A stretch of 64,000 nucleotides of DNA from Desulfovibrio sp. (lineage in GTDB: Bacteria; Desulfobacterota; Desulfovibrionia; Desulfovibrionales; Desulfovibrionaceae), in contig JAILPJ010000071.1 of assembly GCA_024699605.1 (NCBI GenBank), positions 6,882-70,881 of the forward strand, read 5' to 3'. Both the position numbers and the translations under genes were made by a program. This document shows positions 1,151-63,304 of this stretch, piece by piece. Within the stretch, counting starts at the first letter, position 1, and the number at the start of each line of letters is the position of its first letter. The notes beneath the pieces are model-generated. The model saw only the letters and a list, made by a program, of their open reading frames with translations, was not told the origin of the DNA and ran no database searches.

Positions 1151-1570
1151 TCAGCACGGGCGGCTTTCTTCTGAATTTTTCAGCACATCTTCAAGGGTAA
1201 TGGAATCAAGCGTTTTGTTCAAAGAGGCCTGAAGATTGCCCCAGACACCGTGCATGGCACAGTCTGAATAGCGCTCGCAGGAGTCAGGGCAACTCAAACA
1301 CGAGCTCAATTCCATCCCCCCCTCCATGATCGTAAGAATCGTACCGATGGAGACCTCCTTCGGCGTACGCAAAAGCACATGTCCGCCCTTGGCCCCGCGT
1401 ACACTATCGGTGATGCCTGCAAGGCGGAGCTGACGTAAAATTTGTTCAATAAATTGGGCGCTGATACCTGTTTTGGCCGAAAGAAAACTTGAAGAAACGG
1501 GATTGCTATCATGCTGCGCCATACAGAACAGGATGCGAGCAGCGTATCGTGTCTTGGCAGAAAGCTTCAT
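1151..1570 (-). CDS. Rrf2-family transcriptional regulator with Cys cluster
   Basis: MKLSAKTRYAARIL N-terminus, SVRGAKGGHVL wing and CxxCxxxCxxxxxC. Start re-picked at 1570 rather than the ORF-track 1627. Confidence 0.9.
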   Translation of the reverse strand: MKLSAKTRYAARILFCMAQHDSNPVSSSFLSAKTGISAQFIEQILRQLRLAGITDSVRGAKGGHVLLRTPKEVSIGTILTIMEGGMELSSCLSCPDSCERYSDCAMHGVWGNLQASLNKTLDSITLEDVLKNSEESRPC

Positions 1571-1625
1571 TATACCTTTTTCAGCGTGGAAACCCCGGAC
1601 TATGCGGGGAGGATACGCTGCCTCC
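1571..1625 (-). promoter_or_regulatory. Structured 5'UTR element, copy 1 (upstream of rrf2)
   Basis: Minus strand: GGAGG CAGCGT ATCCT CCCCG-catagtc-CGGGG TTTCC ACGCTG AAAAAGGTATA ATG. GGAGG is 50 nt from the ATG. Confidence 0.8.
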
Positions 1626-4558: not shown

Positions 4559-5215
4559 AAAGTATCCTCGGAACGGGCGCAGACCCGTCAGCATGTCAGA
4601 AAAGGTCTGAAAGAACACCGAGCAAGATCGCACGTTGCAGCGACTCTCGATCCGTACAACGTGTAGGCAAAGCCCCCGACATTACGAAAAATCGTACACA
4701 AGAAGAGACGTGATCTTACGCGCGCCAAACAAACCATCTGGTTTCGCCGTCTGCTACGGCTTCTGCGAGGCGCAGAACACGAATGTCACTTACCGCGGAT
4801 AGCAAAACCCACGGCAGTACATGGGTACTCTTGGGCCGATATCTAGTCTACTCACTTTTGAGTCGGTACACCTCCTGCGGTTTGGCTGACTAGGAGTAAA
4901 GCCGGCAACAACTCCACATATCTAAAAAACATTGAGAGCAGACTACTGAGTACGAAAAAAGTCCCATATAATGATGCTTGTGTCAATCACATTTTCAAAA
5001 TTTGTCGTAAACTCTTTGCTCTGGACCAGAGTTTATGCCTTCCCAGCGTAAAAAATTGTCTGTGCAAGGACGAACTTAGGGCGCTGACCAAGCGCATTGA
5101 GCCACAAAGGACACGGGCGCTGTAGCCAACGGCGTCTTGGACTCAATCTGCCCTTATGCTAAAAAGAACTGTTGCTTGTGTACGTCACAGAAAACCTTCC
5201 AAGGCAAGGACAGTT

Positions 5216-17914: not shown

Positions 17915-19114
17915 CTAGGCTTGCACTATCACCTTCAGAAAACGCTTTTTACCAAGACGAATCACATACTGACCTTGCGCAAATGGGGTCTGCGCGTCTT
18001 CACAGCGTGTTCCATTGACTGTCAGAGAGCCCGATTTAATCAAGCGGCGGGCCTCACTGCGGCTTTTGACAAGACCTGCGGCTTCCAAAAAAGCCACCGG
18101 CGTTGACGCCTCTCCATAGGCGCAGGTCCATTCCTCAATATCTGTGGGGACACCGCCTGAGGCAAATACACTGGCAAACTCCTGTCGAGCCGCCTGAGCC
18201 GCTTCTTGGCTGTGATAACGTGTGATGATCTCCTCGGCAAGATTCTCCTTGCAGGTCTTGGGATGGAGATCGCCCTGTTCCACACGACTTTTCATCCCGG
18301 CGATTTCTTCAAGACTTTTTTCCGACAAAAGTTCATAGTAGCGCCACATCAACTCATCGGAAATCTTCATAAATTTTCCGAACATTTCTTTCGGCGTTTC
18401 ATCAATGCCAATATAATTTCCATACGATTTTGACATTTTTCTCACGCCATCGAGTCCTTCAAGCAGAGGCATAGTCAGAATACACTGAGCTTCCTGTCCA
18501 TACTGCCCCTGCAAGGTGCGGCCCATGAGTAAATTGAACTTTTGATCCGTACCACCGATTTCTACATCGGTATGCAAACTCACGGAATCGTAACCCTGGC
18601 AGAGTGGATAAATAAATTCATGAATCGAAATGGGACGTTTTTCACGATAGCGCTTTTCAAAATCGTCTCGTTCCATCATCCTAGCCACCGTATAGCAGGA
18701 AGCAAGCTTAATGAAGCCGGCGGCATCGAGCCGGGAAAGCCAGTGGGAATTGAATTCCACCAAAGTCTTCTCAGGATCAAGAATTTTAAAGACCTGTTTT
18801 TTATAGGTCTCGGCATTCGCCAGAACCTGCTCTCCGGTGAGCGGGGGACGGGTTTCCGAACGCCCGCTGGGATCGCCAATCCGTCCGGTAAAATCGCCGA
18901 TCAAAAAAACGACCGTATGCCCCAGCTGCTGAAAATGCCGCATTTTCTGCATAATCACGGTGTGCCCGAGGTGCAAATCCGGTGCTGTGGGATCAAAGCC
19001 GACTTTGACACGCAAAGGTGTTCCACGTTCAAGTTTCCGTTTGAGCTCATCCTCATCAATGAGCTCCACCACGCCACGTTTAATTAAAGCAAGCTGTTGT
19101 TCAAGATCTTTCAT
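17915..19114 (-). CDS. tyrS: Tyrosine--tRNA ligase
   Basis: [13 protein letters not shown] (HIGH), [14 protein letters not shown]-terminal S4 domain. Confidence 0.97.
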
Positions 19115-19169
19115 CAGAAATTCAGCGTGGATACCCCATCCTGAAGAACGGGGAGGAAACGCTGCCTCC
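19115..19169 (-). promoter_or_regulatory. Structured 5'UTR element, copy 2 (upstream of tyrS)
   Basis: Minus strand: GGAGG CAGCGT TTCCT CCCCGTTC-ttca-GGATGGGG TATCC ACGCTG AATTTCTG ATG. 50 nt from GGAGG to ATG. Confidence 0.8.
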
Positions 19170-47671: not shown

Positions 47672-48796
47672 TCAAACCAGTCCCATTTCTTGCAGAATAT
47701 GGGCCGCAACAACTTCGGCATCAAAAAGCGTTTGCGCACGTTTGCGTCCATTATTGCCCATGACCTGCACCTGTTCAGGATGTTCACAAAATTCTTCCAT
47801 AGCCTGCTTGAGGGCCTCGACATCACGCACGCTGACCAGCCGGCCGTTTTCTCCGTCAACGACCACTTCACGGCAACCAGGAGCATCGCTGACAATGGCG
47901 GCCCGTCCCGTACTCATGGCTTCCATGACGGCCGTGGGCGTACCTTCCCGCCACGAGGGCAAAACAAGCACATGACACGCTCGAAGATAGGGACGAACAT
48001 CCTGCGTCTGTCCAAGATACTCAATAACACCGGCCTTTTGCCAGCCTAAAACTTCATCCACGGGCACACAGCCAGGTCCGTGCTCTTCCGGACCGAGAAT
48101 CTGAAAGCGGGCTTTGGGGAAACGCGCCTTGACGGCACGGGCTGCAGCAAAATACTCACGCAGCCCCTTGGCTTCAAGCAGGCGACCAATGAGCAAAAAG
48201 ACCGGATTCTCCGCCTCGGGCAAAAGCGGGGGAGCATAGGCAAAACGCGCTGTATCCACGCCAGTGCCCCGAGCAAAAAGCACTCGGGCCGATTCATCGA
48301 GAATACCTTGGCTTTGAAAAAGAGCCGCATCATCGGGATTTTGAAAAAAGATTCCTTGGGCAAAACACAAGGAATGCCGATAGAGGAATGCCGTGAGAGC
48401 ATGCAGCAGACGCTTGGCGGCTGAATCCGCCTCAAAGGTATAGCCTAGGCCGGTAATCGTAGCATAAATATGCGGGACATGCCGCAGACGAGCTGCCAGA
48501 CAGCCGTAGATCACAGGTTTGATGGTGGAAGTGAAGAGCACCTCACAGTCTTCTTCCCGCAGAATTCGTAAAAGCTGCAAAAAGGTTTTGATATCCTGAA
48601 AGGGATTGAGCCCCTTACGGGCAAGATAATAGGTGCGCACGACCCCGTTTTCTGCAAGTGCGTCTAAGTCTGAAGCCTCACCGTCAGCCGGGACGCAGAC
48701 AACGACCTCATGACCGGCAGCCCGCATCTGACGCATCAGCACGGTCCAGAAATTGCGTACGGCCCGGGCCTGATTTCCCAAAACTAGTACTTTCAT
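47672..48796 (-). CDS. GT4 glycosyltransferase (PglA/WbpU-like)
   Basis: TIKPVIYG, TITGLG, FQNPDD, GTGVD, GRLLEAKG, LPSWREGTP. Confidence 0.88.
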   Translation of the reverse strand: MKVLVLGNQARAVRNFWTVLMRQMRAAGHEVVVCVPADGEASDLDALAENGVVRTYYLARKGLNPFQDIKTFLQLLRILREEDCEVLFTSTIKPVIYGCLAARLRHVPHIYATITGLGYTFEADSAAKRLLHALTAFLYRHSLCFAQGIFFQNPDDAALFQSQGILDESARVLFARGTGVDTARFAYAPPLLPEAENPVFLLIGRLLEAKGLREYFAAARAVKARFPKARFQILGPEEHGPGCVPVDEVLGWQKAGVIEYLGQTQDVRPYLRACHVLVLPSWREGTPTAVMEAMSTGRAAIVSDAPGCREVVVDGENGRLVSVRDVEALKQAMEEFCEHPEQVQVMGNNGRKRAQTLFDAEVVAAHILQEMGLV

Positions 48797-48851
48797 CAGC
48801 TATTTCAGCGTGGAGCCTCTGTTCCGAGGACTGGGAGGAAACGCTGCCTCC
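48797..48851 (-). promoter_or_regulatory. Structured 5'UTR element, copy 3 (upstream of GT4)
   Basis: Minus strand: GGAGG CAGCGT TTCCTCCCAGT CCTC-ggaaca-GAGG CTCC ACGCTG AAATAGCTG ATG. 50 nt from GGAGG to ATG. Confidence 0.8.
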
Positions 48852-49207: not shown

Positions 49208-49263
49208 GGAGGCAGCGTTTCCTCTCAGGCTTTGCGTCTGAGGTTTTCACGCTGAAATACGTA
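49208..49263 (+). promoter_or_regulatory. Structured 5'UTR element, copy 4 (upstream of WbpP-like epimerase)
   Basis: GGAGG CAGCGT TTCCT CTCAGGC-tttgc-GTCTGAG GTTTTC ACGCTG AAATACGTA ATG. 51 nt from GGAGG to ATG. Confidence 0.8.
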
Positions 49264-50289
49264 ATGACCGCCTTTACTCAATGTTCCGAGCAGATCCAAA
49301 AAAAACCTGAACACTGGCTGATCACCGGTGTAGCTGGTTTTATCGGCTCCAACCTTTTAGAAACCCTGCTCAAACTCGGTCAAAAAGTGACCGGCCTCGA
49401 CAATTTTCTCACAGGCTACCAGAAGAATCTTGATATGGTGGAAAAGCTTGTGGGACCAGAAGCCTGGAAAAATTTTACCTTTATTAAAGGGGACATCCGC
49501 GATCTTGCAACCTGCCAAAAGGCCGTGCAAGGAGTTCAACATGTACTCCATGAAGCGGCCCTAGGCTCAGTACCCCGTTCCATTGCCGATCCGCTGCTCT
49601 CCAACAGCTGCAATATCGACGGTTTTCTCAACATGCTTTTGGCCGCACGCGATGCCAAGGTGGAGAGTTTTGTCTATGCCGCCTCATCTTCCACCTACGG
49701 AGATTCCACAGAACTACCCAAGGTGGAAGACAAAATCGGGCATCCCCTTTCTCCTTACGCGGTCACCAAATACGTCAATGAACTCTATGCGGATGTCTGT
49801 GCTCGCTGTTATGGTTTTCAAACCATCGGTCTGCGCTACTTCAATGTTTTTGGTCAACGTCAGGATCCCTACGGAGCCTATGCCGCCGTCATTCCCCAGT
49901 GGTTTGCGAGCATGCTGAAGAATGAAACGGTCTACATTAACGGTGATGGCGAAACCACACGCGACTTCTGCTATATTGATAATGTTGTGCAGGCCAATCT
50001 TCTGGCCAGCATGGCTTGTGAAACGGCCAAAAACAAGGTTTACAATGTCGCCTTTGGCCAACGCATCACGTTAAACGAGCTTTTTTCAGCTATTCGCGAC
50101 GAAGTCGCCCGTCACAGGCCCGAGGCTGCTGAGATGACGGCCACCTACCGTGATTTCCGGGCAGGCGATGTCAGACATTCTTTGGCCGACATCACCCGTG
50201 CCAAAACGCTTCTAGGCTATGCCCCCACTCATGATGTTCGCTCTGGCCTTCGTCTGGCAGGCGATTGGTACGCCGCCAATCTTTCCTGA
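49264..50289 (+). CDS. UDP-GlcNAc 4-epimerase (WbpP/TviC-like extended SDR)
   Basis: [55 protein letters not shown]. Confidence 0.9.
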
Positions 50290-59695: not shown

Positions 59696-59953
59696 GTGAA
59701 GTACATTATTGTGGAAGATTTTTCAGGTCAGGAAGTGCCTTTTATTTTTCCCCGCAGGGTTGATCACAGTGATATGCGCGAGCAGCTTCCCTACGGCAAA
59801 ATCGTCTCGGCAGGCTATGTCGAGCTTGGCCCTCAGGGTTTTTTCTGCTCAGGCGGTGATCGCGAACTCAACGTCAAGGCAAGGCCTGAAGCTGACGCTC
59901 TCATCCTCAAGGAAGCACTGCGCCAACGTCCCAAGGCAAACACTATCTCGTAA
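59696..59953 (+). CDS. Small hypothetical protein
   Basis: 85-aa ORF, MKYIIV...PFIFP...H...VSAG...C.G, co-oriented after mltG. Confidence 0.7.
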   Translation: MKYIIVEDFSGQEVPFIFPRRVDHSDMREQLPYGKIVSAGYVELGPQGFFCSGGDRELNVKARPEADALILKEALRQRPKANTIS

Positions 59954-60052
59954 GCCTTGCCGCCCATGAAAAATGCGGTCCCTTCAGATCATCAGGCAAC
60001 GTCCTGCTGTTCAGCCGCCGAAAATTTCTACCTTTTGATTCAAGAGACACTG

Positions 60053-60107
60053 GGAGGCAGCACGTCCGCCTCGGCGTAATGACGAGATCTCTGTGCTGAA
60101 ATAGCTC
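60053..60107 (+). promoter_or_regulatory. Structured 5'UTR element, copy 5 (upstream of cbiA), with compensatory changes
   Basis: GGAGG CAGCAC GTCCGC CTCG-gcgtaatga-CGAG ATCTCT GTGCTG AAATAGCTC ATG. 50 nt from GGAGG to ATG. Confidence 0.8.
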
Positions 60108-61523
60108 ATGAACTTGCCTCAGTCTGGTTTTCTCGTGGCTTCCAACGCCAGCCATGCCGGAAAAACCAGCACTTGTCTTGCTCTGATCGCTGCACTGAAC
60201 AGACGAGGCCTTATCATCCAACCAGCCAAATCTGGTCCTGATTTCATTGATACCAGTTATCTTGCCGCTTTTGCCCAACGCCCCTGTGTCAATCTTGATC
60301 TCTGGCTGCTTGGCAAAAATGGGGTGATGCGCCTTCTGCAACGGCTACAGCGTCAAAACACAGCCCCTGCAGCCGACCTTCTTCTCGTTGAAGGGGCTAT
60401 GGGGCTCTACGACGGCGGTCTGGGCTCAAGTTTTGCCCTGGCCCGCGCCCTCAAGCTACCAGTACTCTTACTGCTCAATGTTCAAGGCATGGGGGAATCT
60501 GTGGCAGCCCTGGCTCAGGGTTTTTTAGCCCAGGCCGAGGGAAAAATCGCCTTTGCAGGCCTGATACTCACCCATACGGGCAGTCATACGCATCAAGCGC
60601 TTCTGACTCGAGCCCTTCGCCGCATTACCAAACAATACCGTGTGCCACTTCTTGGTTTTTTGCCAAGATCCGGTTCCCCTCAGATTGCCTCTCGTCATCT
60701 TGGCCTTGTGGATATTGCGGAAAGTCTGCCCGAACTTGACCAGCAAGCCATGGCTGACTGGTTTGAAAAAAACGTAGCCCTCGATCGACTCCTCAAAAAT
60801 CTGCGTATCCCCTGCCAAAAAAAGTCACAGCCGGCTTCTACTCCCTCACTTTGCGTCCAGCACGTGGCATCATCCAAAAAAGCTCGTATTGCCATAGCCC
60901 ATGACCGTGCCTTTTCTTTTTGCTATGCTGATCTGCCGTTATTTTTCACAGAGCAGGGCTTTGAAGTGCGTTTTTTTTCTCCCCTTATGGATCAAGCTCT
61001 CCCTGCCTGTGAGGCTATCTACCTTCCTGGCGGCTATCCTGAACTTTTTGCCCATGAACTTGCTGCAAACAGCAGCATGATCAAGTCGTTGACTTGCGCG
61101 CAGGCCGAGAATATCCCCATCTACGGAGAATGTGGCGGCTATTTGTATCTTTTACAGGAGCTTGAGCTTCACAATGGCACAACTGTGCCCATGGCGGGCC
61201 TGTTGCCTGGAAAAGCTGTGATTTGTAGCCAACTCCAGGGCTTAGGCTACCGCCTGGGAGATCTGATCTGGGATATTTTTGCATTGGGCCAAACAATTCG
61301 GGTACGCGGCCATGAATTCCACTACGCACGAGTGCTTACTCAGAGCACAAGCCCCCTCTGGTTGCTGCACAATAAACAAAAAAAGCCTCTTGGCCCTTCT
61401 GGCTGTACCAAAAAATTCACAGCAGGAAGCTTTCTGCATCTTCCCGTAGAAGGCAATCGCAGCTTCTGGCGTGCCTGGCTTTCCCTGGCTAGCCAAGTCA
61501 AAGGGAGAACGCCATGCCAGTAA
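60108..61523 (+). CDS. cbiA: Cobyrinate a,c-diamide synthase
   Basis: HAGKTS, KSGPDFID, VEGAMGLYDG, SRHLGL, YLPGGYPE, YGECGG, GHEFHY. Confidence 0.9.
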   Translation: MNLPQSGFLVASNASHAGKTSTCLALIAALNRRGLIIQPAKSGPDFIDTSYLAAFAQRPCVNLDLWLLGKNGVMRLLQRLQRQNTAPAADLLLVEGAMGLYDGGLGSSFALARALKLPVLLLLNVQGMGESVAALAQGFLAQAEGKIAFAGLILTHTGSHTHQALLTRALRRITKQYRVPLLGFLPRSGSPQIASRHLGLVDIAESLPELDQQAMADWFEKNVALDRLLKNLRIPCQKKSQPASTPSLCVQHVASSKKARIAIAHDRAFSFCYADLPLFFTEQGFEVRFFSPLMDQALPACEAIYLPGGYPELFAHELAANSSMIKSLTCAQAENIPIYGECGGYLYLLQELELHNGTTVPMAGLLPGKAVICSQLQGLGYRLGDLIWDIFALGQTIRVRGHEFHYARVLTQSTSPLWLLHNKQKKPLGPSGCTKKFTAGSFLHLPVEGNRSFWRAWLSLASQVKGRTPCQ

Positions 61524-62173
61524 CACTTTCCCACGCTCTTGATACAGCACAAAGCCCCAAAGCTATTGAAGAGCGCTCTTTTGCCCTGATCGACGCTATG
61601 CTGCCACCTCCCCGGCCCTTTTCGGGACGTCTCTGGGAAATTGCCAGACGTTGCATCCACACCAGCGGCGATACCACAATCCTGGCAGACCTGCGTCTCA
61701 GTGAACAAGCGCTGAATAGCGGTCTTGCCGCCTTGCGATCAGGCTGTACCATTTATACCGATACGCGTATGGCCAAGGATGGCCTGCCGCTCAGACGCCT
61801 GGCTCCGCTCCAATGCCACACGCTTGCACTCATGGAGCTTGACGGTCTTGAGGCTCTGGCTCAAGAACACGGCACAACCAGAGCCCATGCGGCCGTCAAA
61901 AGCATTCAAGATCAACTGGGAGGGCAAATTGTGGTCATCGGCAATGCCCCCACAGCCCTGCTCTGCCTTCTTGACTGCCTCAAACAGGGAGCTCCCTGCC
62001 CTGCCCTGATCGTGGGTATGCCCGTGGGTTTTGTCAATGCGGCCCAGTCCAAAGAACTTCTGGCTCAGAGTTCCTATCCCCATTTTACGCTGCTGGGTAC
62101 CCGGGGCGGATCAGCGCTAGCAGCCTGCTGTGTCAATGCCATGGCCGAAATGCTGCACAACGAGATATGCTGA
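61514..62173 (+). CDS. cbiC: Precorrin-8X methylmutase
   Basis: IEERSFALID, RCIHTSGD, GTTRA, IGNAPTAL, GMPVGFVNAAQSK, GGSALAA. Confidence 0.93.
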   Translation: MPVTLSHALDTAQSPKAIEERSFALIDAMLPPPRPFSGRLWEIARRCIHTSGDTTILADLRLSEQALNSGLAALRSGCTIYTDTRMAKDGLPLRRLAPLQCHTLALMELDGLEALAQEHGTTRAHAAVKSIQDQLGGQIVVIGNAPTALLCLLDCLKQGAPCPALIVGMPVGFVNAAQSKELLAQSSYPHFTLLGTRGGSALAACCVNAMAEMLHNEIC

Positions 62174-62204
62174 AACTAACGCCAATCATCTCTCTCTTTG
62201 AAGA

Positions 62205-62247
62205 CGGCGTGGCCCTTGGGGTACCAACACCCTGCAACGCTTCTTCC
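62205..62247 (-). repeat. Degenerate orphan copy of the 5'UTR element
   Basis: Minus strand: GGAAG AAGCGT TGC AGGGTGTTGGTACCCC AAGGGCC ACGCCG. Only 4 bp of the outer stem remain and there is no downstream ORF. Confidence 0.4.
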
Positions 62248-62397
62248 CAACGGCCTAAAACAGGGGGCGCTTCGGCAAAAGAGCTGGGCCTTCAAGCAGC
62301 CAGAATGGCGACGAAACAGTCCAGGCTGCTTCATGGACCCTTCTGCCGGCTGAGCGTCGGCTCAGACGGCTATTCATACCAATCCAGGAAAAACAGC

Positions 62398-62455
62398 GGA
62401 GGCGGCGTTTGCGCTCCGTCCTCAATGGCGGGGTTTCCACGCTGAAAAAAGCAAG
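62398..62455 (+). promoter_or_regulatory. Structured 5'UTR element, copy 6 (upstream of ispH)
   Basis: GGAGG CGGCGT TTGCG CTCCGTC-ctcaat-GGCGGGG TTTCC ACGCTG AAAAAAGCAAG ATG. 53 nt from GGAGG to ATG. Confidence 0.78.
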
Positions 62456-63304
62456 ATGAATGTACTACGAGCACAAACAGCGGGTTTCTGTATGGGGGTC
62501 GGCCTTGCCCTAAAAAAACTGGACTCGGCTCTGGCCAAAAGTGATGGACGTAAAATTTCAACGTTGGGCCCCCTGATCCACAATCCTCAGGTACTGGCAG
62601 CCTATGAAGCCAAAGGTGTTGTTTGTGTAGAAGACATCGCCTCTCTTGGCATCCACGACTGTGTCGTGATTCGGGCCCACGGTATTCCGCGTGAACGCGA
62701 AATACTCCTCCGTCAGAGCGGAGCCTTTGTCGTTGATGCCACCTGCCCAAAAGTCAAAAAGGCCCAGCTGGCCATTGCCCATGCCACACAACATGGCGAA
62801 GCCCTGATACTGTTTGGCGAAGCCGATCATCCAGAAGTTCGCGGCCTGATCTCGTACGCCCAGGGGCCGGCCTGTGTCATCGGTGCCGACGACGATCTTC
62901 AAAATCTGCCAGTGCCGCTGGAGCGAGGACTGGTGCTGGCCTCGCAAACGACCCAGGATCGCGAAGCGTTTCAACGACTTGAACGCAAAGCGGCCAGTCT
63001 GCACCCCGATCTTGAGGTGCTTTCAACCATCTGTGACGCCACGAAACAACGTCAGGAAGAGGCTCGTTCCATTGCCCAGAAAGTCGATATTATGGTTGTC
63101 GTTGGGGGACGACAAAGTGGCAATACCCGCAGACTGGCTGATGTAGTGGCCGCCTGCGGCATTGAAACTGTGCTTGTGGAAACAGCCGACGAGCTGGAAG
63201 AAAAAAAATTTCGGCAAAAAGCATGCGTAGGCCTAACGGCTGGCGCATCTACGCCGAAAAGCCTCATAGATATGGCCGAAGCACGACTCGCTGCCATGGA
63301 GTAA
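62456..63304 (+). CDS. ispH: 4-hydroxy-3-methylbut-2-enyl diphosphate reductase
   Basis: AGFCMGV, IHNP, RAHG, DATCPKV, HPEV, SQTT, TICDAT, SGNT, TAGASTP. Confidence 0.96.
   Translation: MNVLRAQTAGFCMGVGLALKKLDSALAKSDGRKISTLGPLIHNPQVLAAYEAKGVVCVEDIASLGIHDCVVIRAHGIPREREILLRQSGAFVVDATCPKVKKAQLAIAHATQHGEALILFGEADHPEVRGLISYAQGPACVIGADDDLQNLPVPLERGLVLASQTTQDREAFQRLERKAASLHPDLEVLSTICDATKQRQEEARSIAQKVDIMVVVGGRQSGNTRRLADVVAACGIETVLVETADELEEKKFRQKACVGLTAGASTPKSLIDMAEARLAAME

Follow-up and report, generated by a model that had tools for sequence, protein, structure and literature searches.

Fossil left ends of IscB transposons as probable split ribosome-binding sites in a rumen Desulfovibrio

Element preceding the cbiA gene

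The 64-kb stretch of DNA analysed here (the window) belongs to a MAG of 2.76 Mb (G000; 114 contigs, 51.5% GC), and the sequencing runs in which this genome is contained are sheep, goat and bovine gut metagenomes. One of the genes of the window codes for a protein of the cobyrinic acid a,c-diamide synthase type (CbiA) and is followed by a CbiC gene. The region immediately upstream of cbiA was found to comprise the following features:

59954..60052, plus strand: insert of ~100 nt 5' of GGAGG, present in G000 and missing before cbiA in the relatives G067 and G097
60053..60057, plus strand: GGAGG, the sole Shine-Dalgarno (SD)-like motif before cbiA, 50 nt 5' of the ATG
60058..60063, plus strand: 5' arm of the outer stem, CAGCAC, a subfamily variant (read directly; RNA fold; covariation)
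60064..60092, plus strand: hairpin interior of 29 nt with internal loop, inner stem and apical loop (RNA fold)
60070-60073 with 60083-60086, plus strand: inner stem, 4 bp (RNA fold)
60074-60082, plus strand: apical loop (RNA fold)
60093..60098, plus strand: 3' arm of the outer stem, GTGCTG (read directly; RNA fold; covariation)
60099..60107, plus strand: A-rich spacer AAATAGCTC, 9 nt, without an SD; last bases of the transposon end
60108..60112, plus strand: ATGAA, the cbiA start codon and two further bases; reverse complement of TTCAT
60108..61523, plus strand: cbiA (Pfam GATase_3, 1.9e-28, and CbiA, 4e-13)

The insert at 59954..60052 is probably a decayed remnant of iscB 3' coding sequence that came in with the transposon end discussed below, the similarity of this remnant to iscB being weak. 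In G067 and G097, the cbiA products of which share 64% and 69% amino acid identity with that of G000, the gaps upstream of cbiA measure 12 and 42 nt and contain no element; these are the two closest orthologous leaders found, and the element is equally missing from those of 22 more distant orthologues within the genus. An 85-aa ORF without a Pfam family (59696-59953, plus strand) is conserved directly 5' of cbiA in all three genomes. It is co-directional with cbiA and ends 154 nt upstream of it in G000 (12 and 42 nt in the two nearest relatives), so that the leading position of cbiA in an operon, as assumed in the preliminary description of this locus, is unclear. A consensus scan detected neither a promoter nor a terminator in the cbiA and ispH gaps.

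The cobalamin riboswitch that had been reported as lacking was indeed not found: Rfam yielded only a tRNA at gathering thresholds in the whole window and no cobalamin match at E<=10 in the region 59950-60130; E-value searches on two copies of the element returned noise, including weak C/D-box snoRNA matches. The link of the element to cobalamin is incidental, as its copies also precede the genes of an Rrf2-family regulator, TyrS, a glycosyltransferase, an epimerase, IspH and GAPDH, among others.

Copies in the window and in the genome

A pattern search with the layout GGAGGCAGCRY...RYGCTG gave five matches in the window against 0.02 expected from shuffles, and the ispH copy makes a sixth. The copies other than that of cbiA are:

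62398..62460 (arm-pair span 62398-62444), plus strand: ispH copy, arms CGGCGT/ACGCTG; left remnant longer, to ~62340
49208..49268 (arm-pair span 49208-49254), plus strand: copy of the NAD-dependent epimerase gene, arms CAGCGT/ACGCTG
48792..48851 (arm-pair span 48851-48806), minus strand: copy of the GT4 glycosyltransferase gene, arms CAGCGT/ACGCTG
19110..19169 (arm-pair span 19169-19123), minus strand: tyrS copy, arms CAGCGT/ACGCTG
1566..1625 (arm-pair span 1625-1582), minus strand: copy of the Rrf2-family regulator gene, arms CAGCGT/ACGCTG

Direct reading confirmed the arms given in the preliminary description, i.e. CAGCAC/GTGCTG before cbiA against CAGCGT/ACGCTG in four copies, with all six pairs kept, and CGGCGT/ACGCTG before ispH. 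All six copies have an ATG 8-11 nt after the element and are predicted to fold with the GGAGG left free: an outer stem of 6 bp is separated by a 5x5 internal loop of pyrimidines from an inner hairpin that varies between copies. A 92-aa ORF preceding ispH (62167-62445, plus strand) has no Pfam match, overlaps the transposon remnant and ends in the GCTGA of the element; it is probably not a gene.

The whole genome harbours at least 113 copies according to iterated nhmmer, or 119 according to a covariance model built from the six window copies. All members follow one layout: GGAGG comes first, the 6-bp outer stem then encloses a pyrimidine internal loop and a variable inner hairpin, and a spacer of 7-11 nt leads to ATGA(A). 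A start codon lies just 3' of the element in 95 of the 98 copies parsed (ATG in 93), and the median length of the ORFs thus opened is 308 aa; the spacer between the 3' arm and the start codon measures 7-11 nt in 90/95 copies. ATGA follows the element directly in 88 and ATGAA in 64 of these 95 copies, the background being ~10%. The distance from GGAGG to ATG has its mode at 55 nt, and the spread of 53-57 nt covers three frames. In ordinary genes of G000, by comparison, GGAGG lies 4-9 nt from the ATG with a spacing mode of 5 nt. Proximal SDs are lacking in the family: an SD-like 4-mer occurs in 3/95 element spacers vs 42% for ordinary ORFs.

Outside the window, on the minus strand of contig C24 (~4830-4985), two copies stand in tandem, the second of which begins 23 nt after the first. 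The SD of the first copy has decayed to AAGG and this copy ends in ATGAAC, and the second ends in ATGAAT before the gene. The arrangement looks like a second insertion beside an ATGAA created or kept by the first copy.

Covariation and selection on pairing

The enlarged alignment, which drew on G000, on sister species and on other phyla, comprised 110 copies, of which 99 were distinct. Covariation proved to be strong: paired cells amounted to 92.0% vs 80.9 +/- 0.6% in shuffles of the 99 distinct copies, changes on both sides were seen in 147 cells vs 44 in shuffles, and none of 500 shuffles reached any of the covariation measures. When the 3' partners were slid, pairing fell to 26-47%. The inner stem is both the most variable and the most covarying part of the family, and at the second pair of the outer stem 51 copies have A-U and 42 have G-C. 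The GGAGG column is ~99% conserved in the 99 distinct copies and forms, together with UUUCCUCC, the most conserved columns of the alignment. Pairing is thus under selection at the family level.

The preliminary description had regarded the double substitution in the cbiA arms as evidence of a functional RNA helix under pairing selection. This view agrees with the family-level covariation and with the excess of G-U pairs described below; the cbiA change itself, however, is not shown to be a compensation within this leader. Family-wide, the two pairs concerned are G-C in 96 copies and A-U in 2, and U-A in 79, U-G in 12 and C-G in 3. The arms CAGCAC/GTGCTG recur in a second copy of G000 (contig C19) and in two copies of the sister species G097 that are identical and have a consensus interior, and they represent an inherited subfamily variant. 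The covariation is likewise largely inherited at the family level.

Covariation in a repeated hairpin may stem from a transposase reading single-stranded DNA as well as from a function in RNA. On the mRNA-sense strand, G-U combinations outnumber A-C ones by 77 to 29 (p=3e-6) and by 16 to 1 in the unambiguous outer stem taken separately; related copies are included in these counts, and the alignment behind them was fitted to a model. This excess argues for a constraint acting at the RNA level.

The element as the left end of an IscB transposon

The origin of the element is apparent from full copies in other phyla, where it lies directly behind iscB with the HEARO/omega RNA upstream, which makes it a transposon left end (LE) and not an autonomous riboswitch-like RNA. 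Loci of this kind, in which the element is flanked by iscB, occur in Chlamydiae, Chloroflexia, Terriglobia, Pseudomonadota and Desulfurivibrio. In the latter (locus L074), a 496-aa ORF with a PLMP-like N-terminus and RRXRR and HNH domains enters the element, reads through its GGAGG and stops in the apical loop. With the L074 protein as a query, IscB homologues (50-54% identity) were found to end exactly at the element in L066, L119, L081 and L099, and the IscB proteins adjoining the element match Pfam RRXRR with E-values of 1e-67 to 1e-72 as well as HNH. Upstream of iscB, HEARO (RF02033, gathering score 83) was detected with 151.5 bits in L066, 117.3 in L119 and 115.4 in L074. In full-length elements the GGAGG bases form Gly codons near the C-terminus of IscB, and the apical loop, conserved as CUGAAG/CUAAAG in full copies, contains the iscB stop codon ~30 nt 5' of the ATG. 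The HEARO start in L074, L066 and L119 carries a hairpin, CCCCGCCC...GGGGCG, which resembles the inner stem-loop of the LE; the short copies of G000 are devoid of it.

Traces of the same organization persist in G000. IscB remnants adjoin copies on contigs C73, C74 and C57, and the left modules of ~15 copies are longer and consist of decayed iscB 3' coding sequence which aligns to the IscB C-terminus. An ATGG located upstream in the longer copies was considered as an old start codon or a right-end motif and was discarded, since it belongs to decayed iscB coding sequence (ISWRHC region). HEARO has one match over the cut-off in G000 and four below it. The one over the cut-off, at C36:9809-10053 (minus strand, locus L207), scores 114.6 bits and is followed by an IscB-like frame with stop codons, a decayed IscB element of a second type without an adjoining copy of the SD-hairpin unit. 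A search of the short units of G000 for a canonical right end gave none. Y1_Tnp has three matches in this genome; across the genus, the Y1 transposase is present in 64/111 genomes regardless of the element, does not track it and is not discriminating.

Meers et al. (bioRxiv 10.1101/2023.03.14.532601) place the omega RNA of IscB elements upstream of iscB, with the right end as its boundary, and the TAM on the 5' side of the left end; for GstIscB they give TTCAT as the TAM. By this published order of omega RNA/right end and TAM/LE, the left end is the hairpin that follows iscB, and the ATGAA adjoining it on the gene strand is the reverse complement of TTCAT. Judged by its sequence, the cbiA hairpin is a fossil LE of an IscB-encoding transposon of the IS200/IS605 family (HEARO/OMEGA element). 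An ATGAA target-site duplication at cbiA was also considered and set aside, as the alignment of orthologues is ambiguous there.

The subterminal hairpin of IS200/IS605 elements is recognised by TnpA as single-stranded DNA, on the strand that carries the TAM 5' of the LE. Consequently, the earlier statement that the helix is not a protein-bound DNA site fails with regard to the origin of the element. The strand read by TnpA is the antisense strand of the host gene, which explains both why the arms are conserved and why the internal loop is rich in purines on the strand in question. The G-U excess falls on the mRNA strand, i.e. the wrong one for TnpA, and hence supports selection at the RNA level in the retained copies.

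The more than 100 ends without iscB could have arisen either by repeated decay of full insertions or by the spread of a truncated unit. Several of them possess the same truncated left module, which suggests that the truncated unit itself has spread. About 15 copies of G000 carry a second, GATC-containing palindrome (CGTCTGATCAG / CTGATCAGACG) within the iscB remnant, at -60 to -25 from GGAGG (in the window, e.g. at 62340-62375). None of the intact iscB 3' ends examined contains this palindrome, which may be a derived feature of the truncated unit that spread.

In L074 (760-2804; Desulfurivibrio sp. D14AmB) the IscB element resides inside a tnpB gene: the ORF following the element begins at position 72 of the OrfB_IS605 profile and carries a Cas12f1-like TNB domain. 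One IS200/IS605 element has thus been inserted into another at an internal ATGAA.

Distribution and turnover

An exact scan of GTDB species genomes detected the 18-mer core of the element in several MAGs of rumen Desulfovibrio. One Desulfurivibrio genome and MAGs carrying the labels Chlamydiae, Cyanobacteria, Chloroflexia, Terriglobia and Actinomycetota also contain full copies, which are followed by an ATG at 8-12 nt. The element was found in 21/111 genomes of the genus, in none of 150 others sampled across the phylum and in 2/121 of a cyanobacterial order; copy numbers elsewhere reach 47 in one other delta-proteobacterial MAG and 1-5 in cyanobacterial, chlamydial and Chloroflexia genomes. 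The distribution is therefore sporadic and patchy. As for carriage by phages, IMG/VR gave a single match to the 18-mer, which is due to chance and does not represent the element.

At loci that allow a comparison between relatives, gain and loss of the element are fast. Three genes with closely related products (rplS, 99% amino acid identity; L096, 97%; L079, 96%) bear the element in another rumen Desulfovibrio and an ordinary SD at 6-8 nt in G000. At loci where both species have the element, the inner hairpins differ in sequence and length and still fold. Near-identical copies can occur at unrelated loci within a single genome. In the rumen Desulfovibrio MAG RGIG6612, the inner hairpins preceding the genes of GAPDH (L058:7269-7339) and of an unrelated secreted protein (L121:7334-7404) are one base apart, and that of the GAPDH leader in G000 is quite unlike its RGIG6612 counterpart; the RGIG6612 pair points to recent copying or conversion within the genome.

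Proposed role in translation initiation

The probable, though by no means certain, explanation of these data is that the fossil LE of an IscB transposon has been retained as a split ribosome-binding site of the host gene. The hairpin has a predicted free energy of ~-18.5 kcal/mol, the outer stem has a probability of 0.90 in the predicted ensemble, and the spacer is A-rich and mostly unpaired (median 0.62). A distant SD, a stable predicted hairpin, a suitable spacing once the latter is folded and the lack of a proximal SD are all in place. As genes bearing the element have no other SD, we infer that the GGAGG, bridged by a looped-out hairpin as in genes 25 and 38 of T4, drives translation; selection at the RNA level on the fossils is likewise inferred. 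More than 100 genes of this rumen Desulfovibrio thus appear to use transposon leftovers as ribosome-binding sites. One metatranscriptome contig of 174 nt matches exactly and covers a leader together with the start of the GAPDH gene, at low depth and with DNA carry-over being possible. What counts against the split site is that the effective spacing of GGAGG, 8-10 nt plus the helix end, exceeds the genomic mode of 5 nt; the 3' end of 16S rRNA is missing from the G000 assembly.

The proposed course of events is as follows. IscB elements would integrate beside a TTCAT motif, and since this is the reverse complement of ATGAA, the LE would come to abut the ATG of a gene on the sense strand, bringing along GGAGG and then the subterminal hairpin. 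In the mRNA the hairpin would fold and be looped out, placing GGAGG effectively 8-10 nt from the AUG, and owing to such a bridged site the insertion would not silence the host gene. The interior of the transposon (omega RNA and iscB) would have been lost afterwards, whereas the end would have stayed because it had become the translation initiation region of the gene. Pairing would first have been constrained by TnpA recognition of the DNA hairpin, the variant CAGCAC/GTGCTG having presumably arisen in that mobile lineage, and the pairing of the fossils is now probably kept by the need for an RNA helix. A role of the element in RNA is likely. A wider proposal, which is quite conceivable but falls somewhat short of being probable, holds that the IscB/IS200-IS605 lineage has evolved an LE which doubles as a portable translation initiation region, that start codons serve as safe harbours, and that ~4% of the genes, tyrS included, depend on exapted ends whose RNA helix is under purifying selection.

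The same leftovers might instead be purely selfish relics, i.e. decaying ends whose pairing reflects recent descent under the constraint of TnpA, with the genes translated independently of an SD by means of the A-rich spacer or of coupling. The inheritance of the arm variant, the rapid gain and loss, the mostly unpaired state of the spacer and the fact that copies within one genome are more alike than copies of the same gene across species all fit such a history. It nevertheless seems unlikely, given that GGAGG is ~99% conserved even in iscB-less fossils, that the surplus of G-U over A-C is seen on the mRNA strand, whereas the active strand of the transposon is, from the orientation published for TAM and LE, the opposite one, that widely different inner stems still fold, and that essential genes such as tyrS are left without any other SD.

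Sequestration of the SD, on the other hand, would turn the element into a regulatory RNA switch, in which CCUCC of the 5' internal loop pairs with GGAGG in a hairpin or a pseudoknot and gates a regulon by temperature, ligand or protein. The anti-SD pairing put forward in the preliminary description exists as complementarity between GAGGC (60054-60058) and GCCTC (60068-60072), a 5-bp SD:anti-SD hairpin of ~-6.3 kcal/mol is possible, the topology would allow an H-type pseudoknot together with the outer stem, and GGAGG and its partner columns are the most conserved ones. The pairing is, however, absent from the predicted fold, its median probability being 0.01 in an ensemble of nested structures only, and an SD-sequestering switch or thermometer was rejected on this ground. 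Moreover, the same bases are accounted for by IscB coding and by the transposon hairpin, the genes downstream of the family copies share no common function, no Rfam family matches and the taxon distribution is sporadic, all of which renders the switch very unlikely. A K-loop (CUGA...UGAUGA) was discarded as well, since its CUG takes part in Watson-Crick pairs of the outer stem and CCGA stands in place of CUGA in 42% of the copies.

A leader-peptide or termination-reinitiation cassette, in which a small upstream ORF crosses the element and stops at a UGA overlapping the AUG (UGAUG), is barely credible: a stop overlaps the ATG in 59/95 copies and the iscB stop of full elements lies in the apical loop ~30 nt upstream, but the GGAGG-to-ATG distances (53-57 nt) fall in all three frames, upstream open frames are inconsistent and an ORF ending at the overlap starts from just 2/14 candidate upstream ATGs.

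Comparison with known systems

The closest relatives of the element preferred here as a split ribosome-binding site are the IscB transposons of the IS200/IS605 family, such as ISGst5 of Geobacillus stearothermophilus, together with those derivatives of them that lack genes (PATEs). The full copies share with them the order of omega RNA, iscB and hairpin, and the flanking ATGAA corresponds, as its reverse complement, to the TTCAT TAM on the 5' side of the LE; further common traits are the subterminal imperfect palindrome, the patchy spread across phyla, the many non-autonomous copies and the Y1 transposase genes in the genome. In contrast to these transposons, most G000 copies consist of the end only and lack iscB, the omega RNA and any recognisable right end, and they stand almost only against start codons, in gene orientation and with GGAGG placed for the host gene.

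In T4 genes 25 and 38 the SD is linearly too far from the AUG, and a hairpin between the two restores the functional distance and is needed for initiation (PMC3014915). Those are single genes with a spacing of 22-27 nt, while here a transposon-derived 42-nt hairpin is found at more than 100 genes. The intergenic repeats of the Correia/NEMIS, ERIC, MIRU and REP/REPIN families (PMC3184786), which influence the genes next to them, are similarly small, folded, multi-copy elements co-transcribed with host genes; the present family differs from them in that its mobilising family and target motif can be named (IS200/IS605, TTCAT) and in that its place at the start codon is exact to the base.

The literature searched, full text included, does not describe an IscB left end that serves its host as a ribosome-binding site; neither a Shine-Dalgarno role nor one in ribosome binding is mentioned by Meers et al. 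(bioRxiv 10.1101/2023.03.14.532601), and a literature search with the exact sequence gave unrelated primer matches only. If true, the proposed role would explain how a small genome accommodates more than 100 insertions of an RNA-guided-nuclease transposon without death of the host: the transposon picks start codons and supplies a working ribosome-binding site. It would amount to a large-scale rewiring of translation initiation by mobile DNA and would give annotators a reason for genes whose only SD sits ~50 nt upstream. The >100 natural variants would form a set for studying how the ribosome accommodates a hairpin between SD and AUG.

Signal peptides are in mild excess among the proteins encoded 3' of the element (26% vs 9-16%), which is probably a by-product of ATGAA(A) starts.
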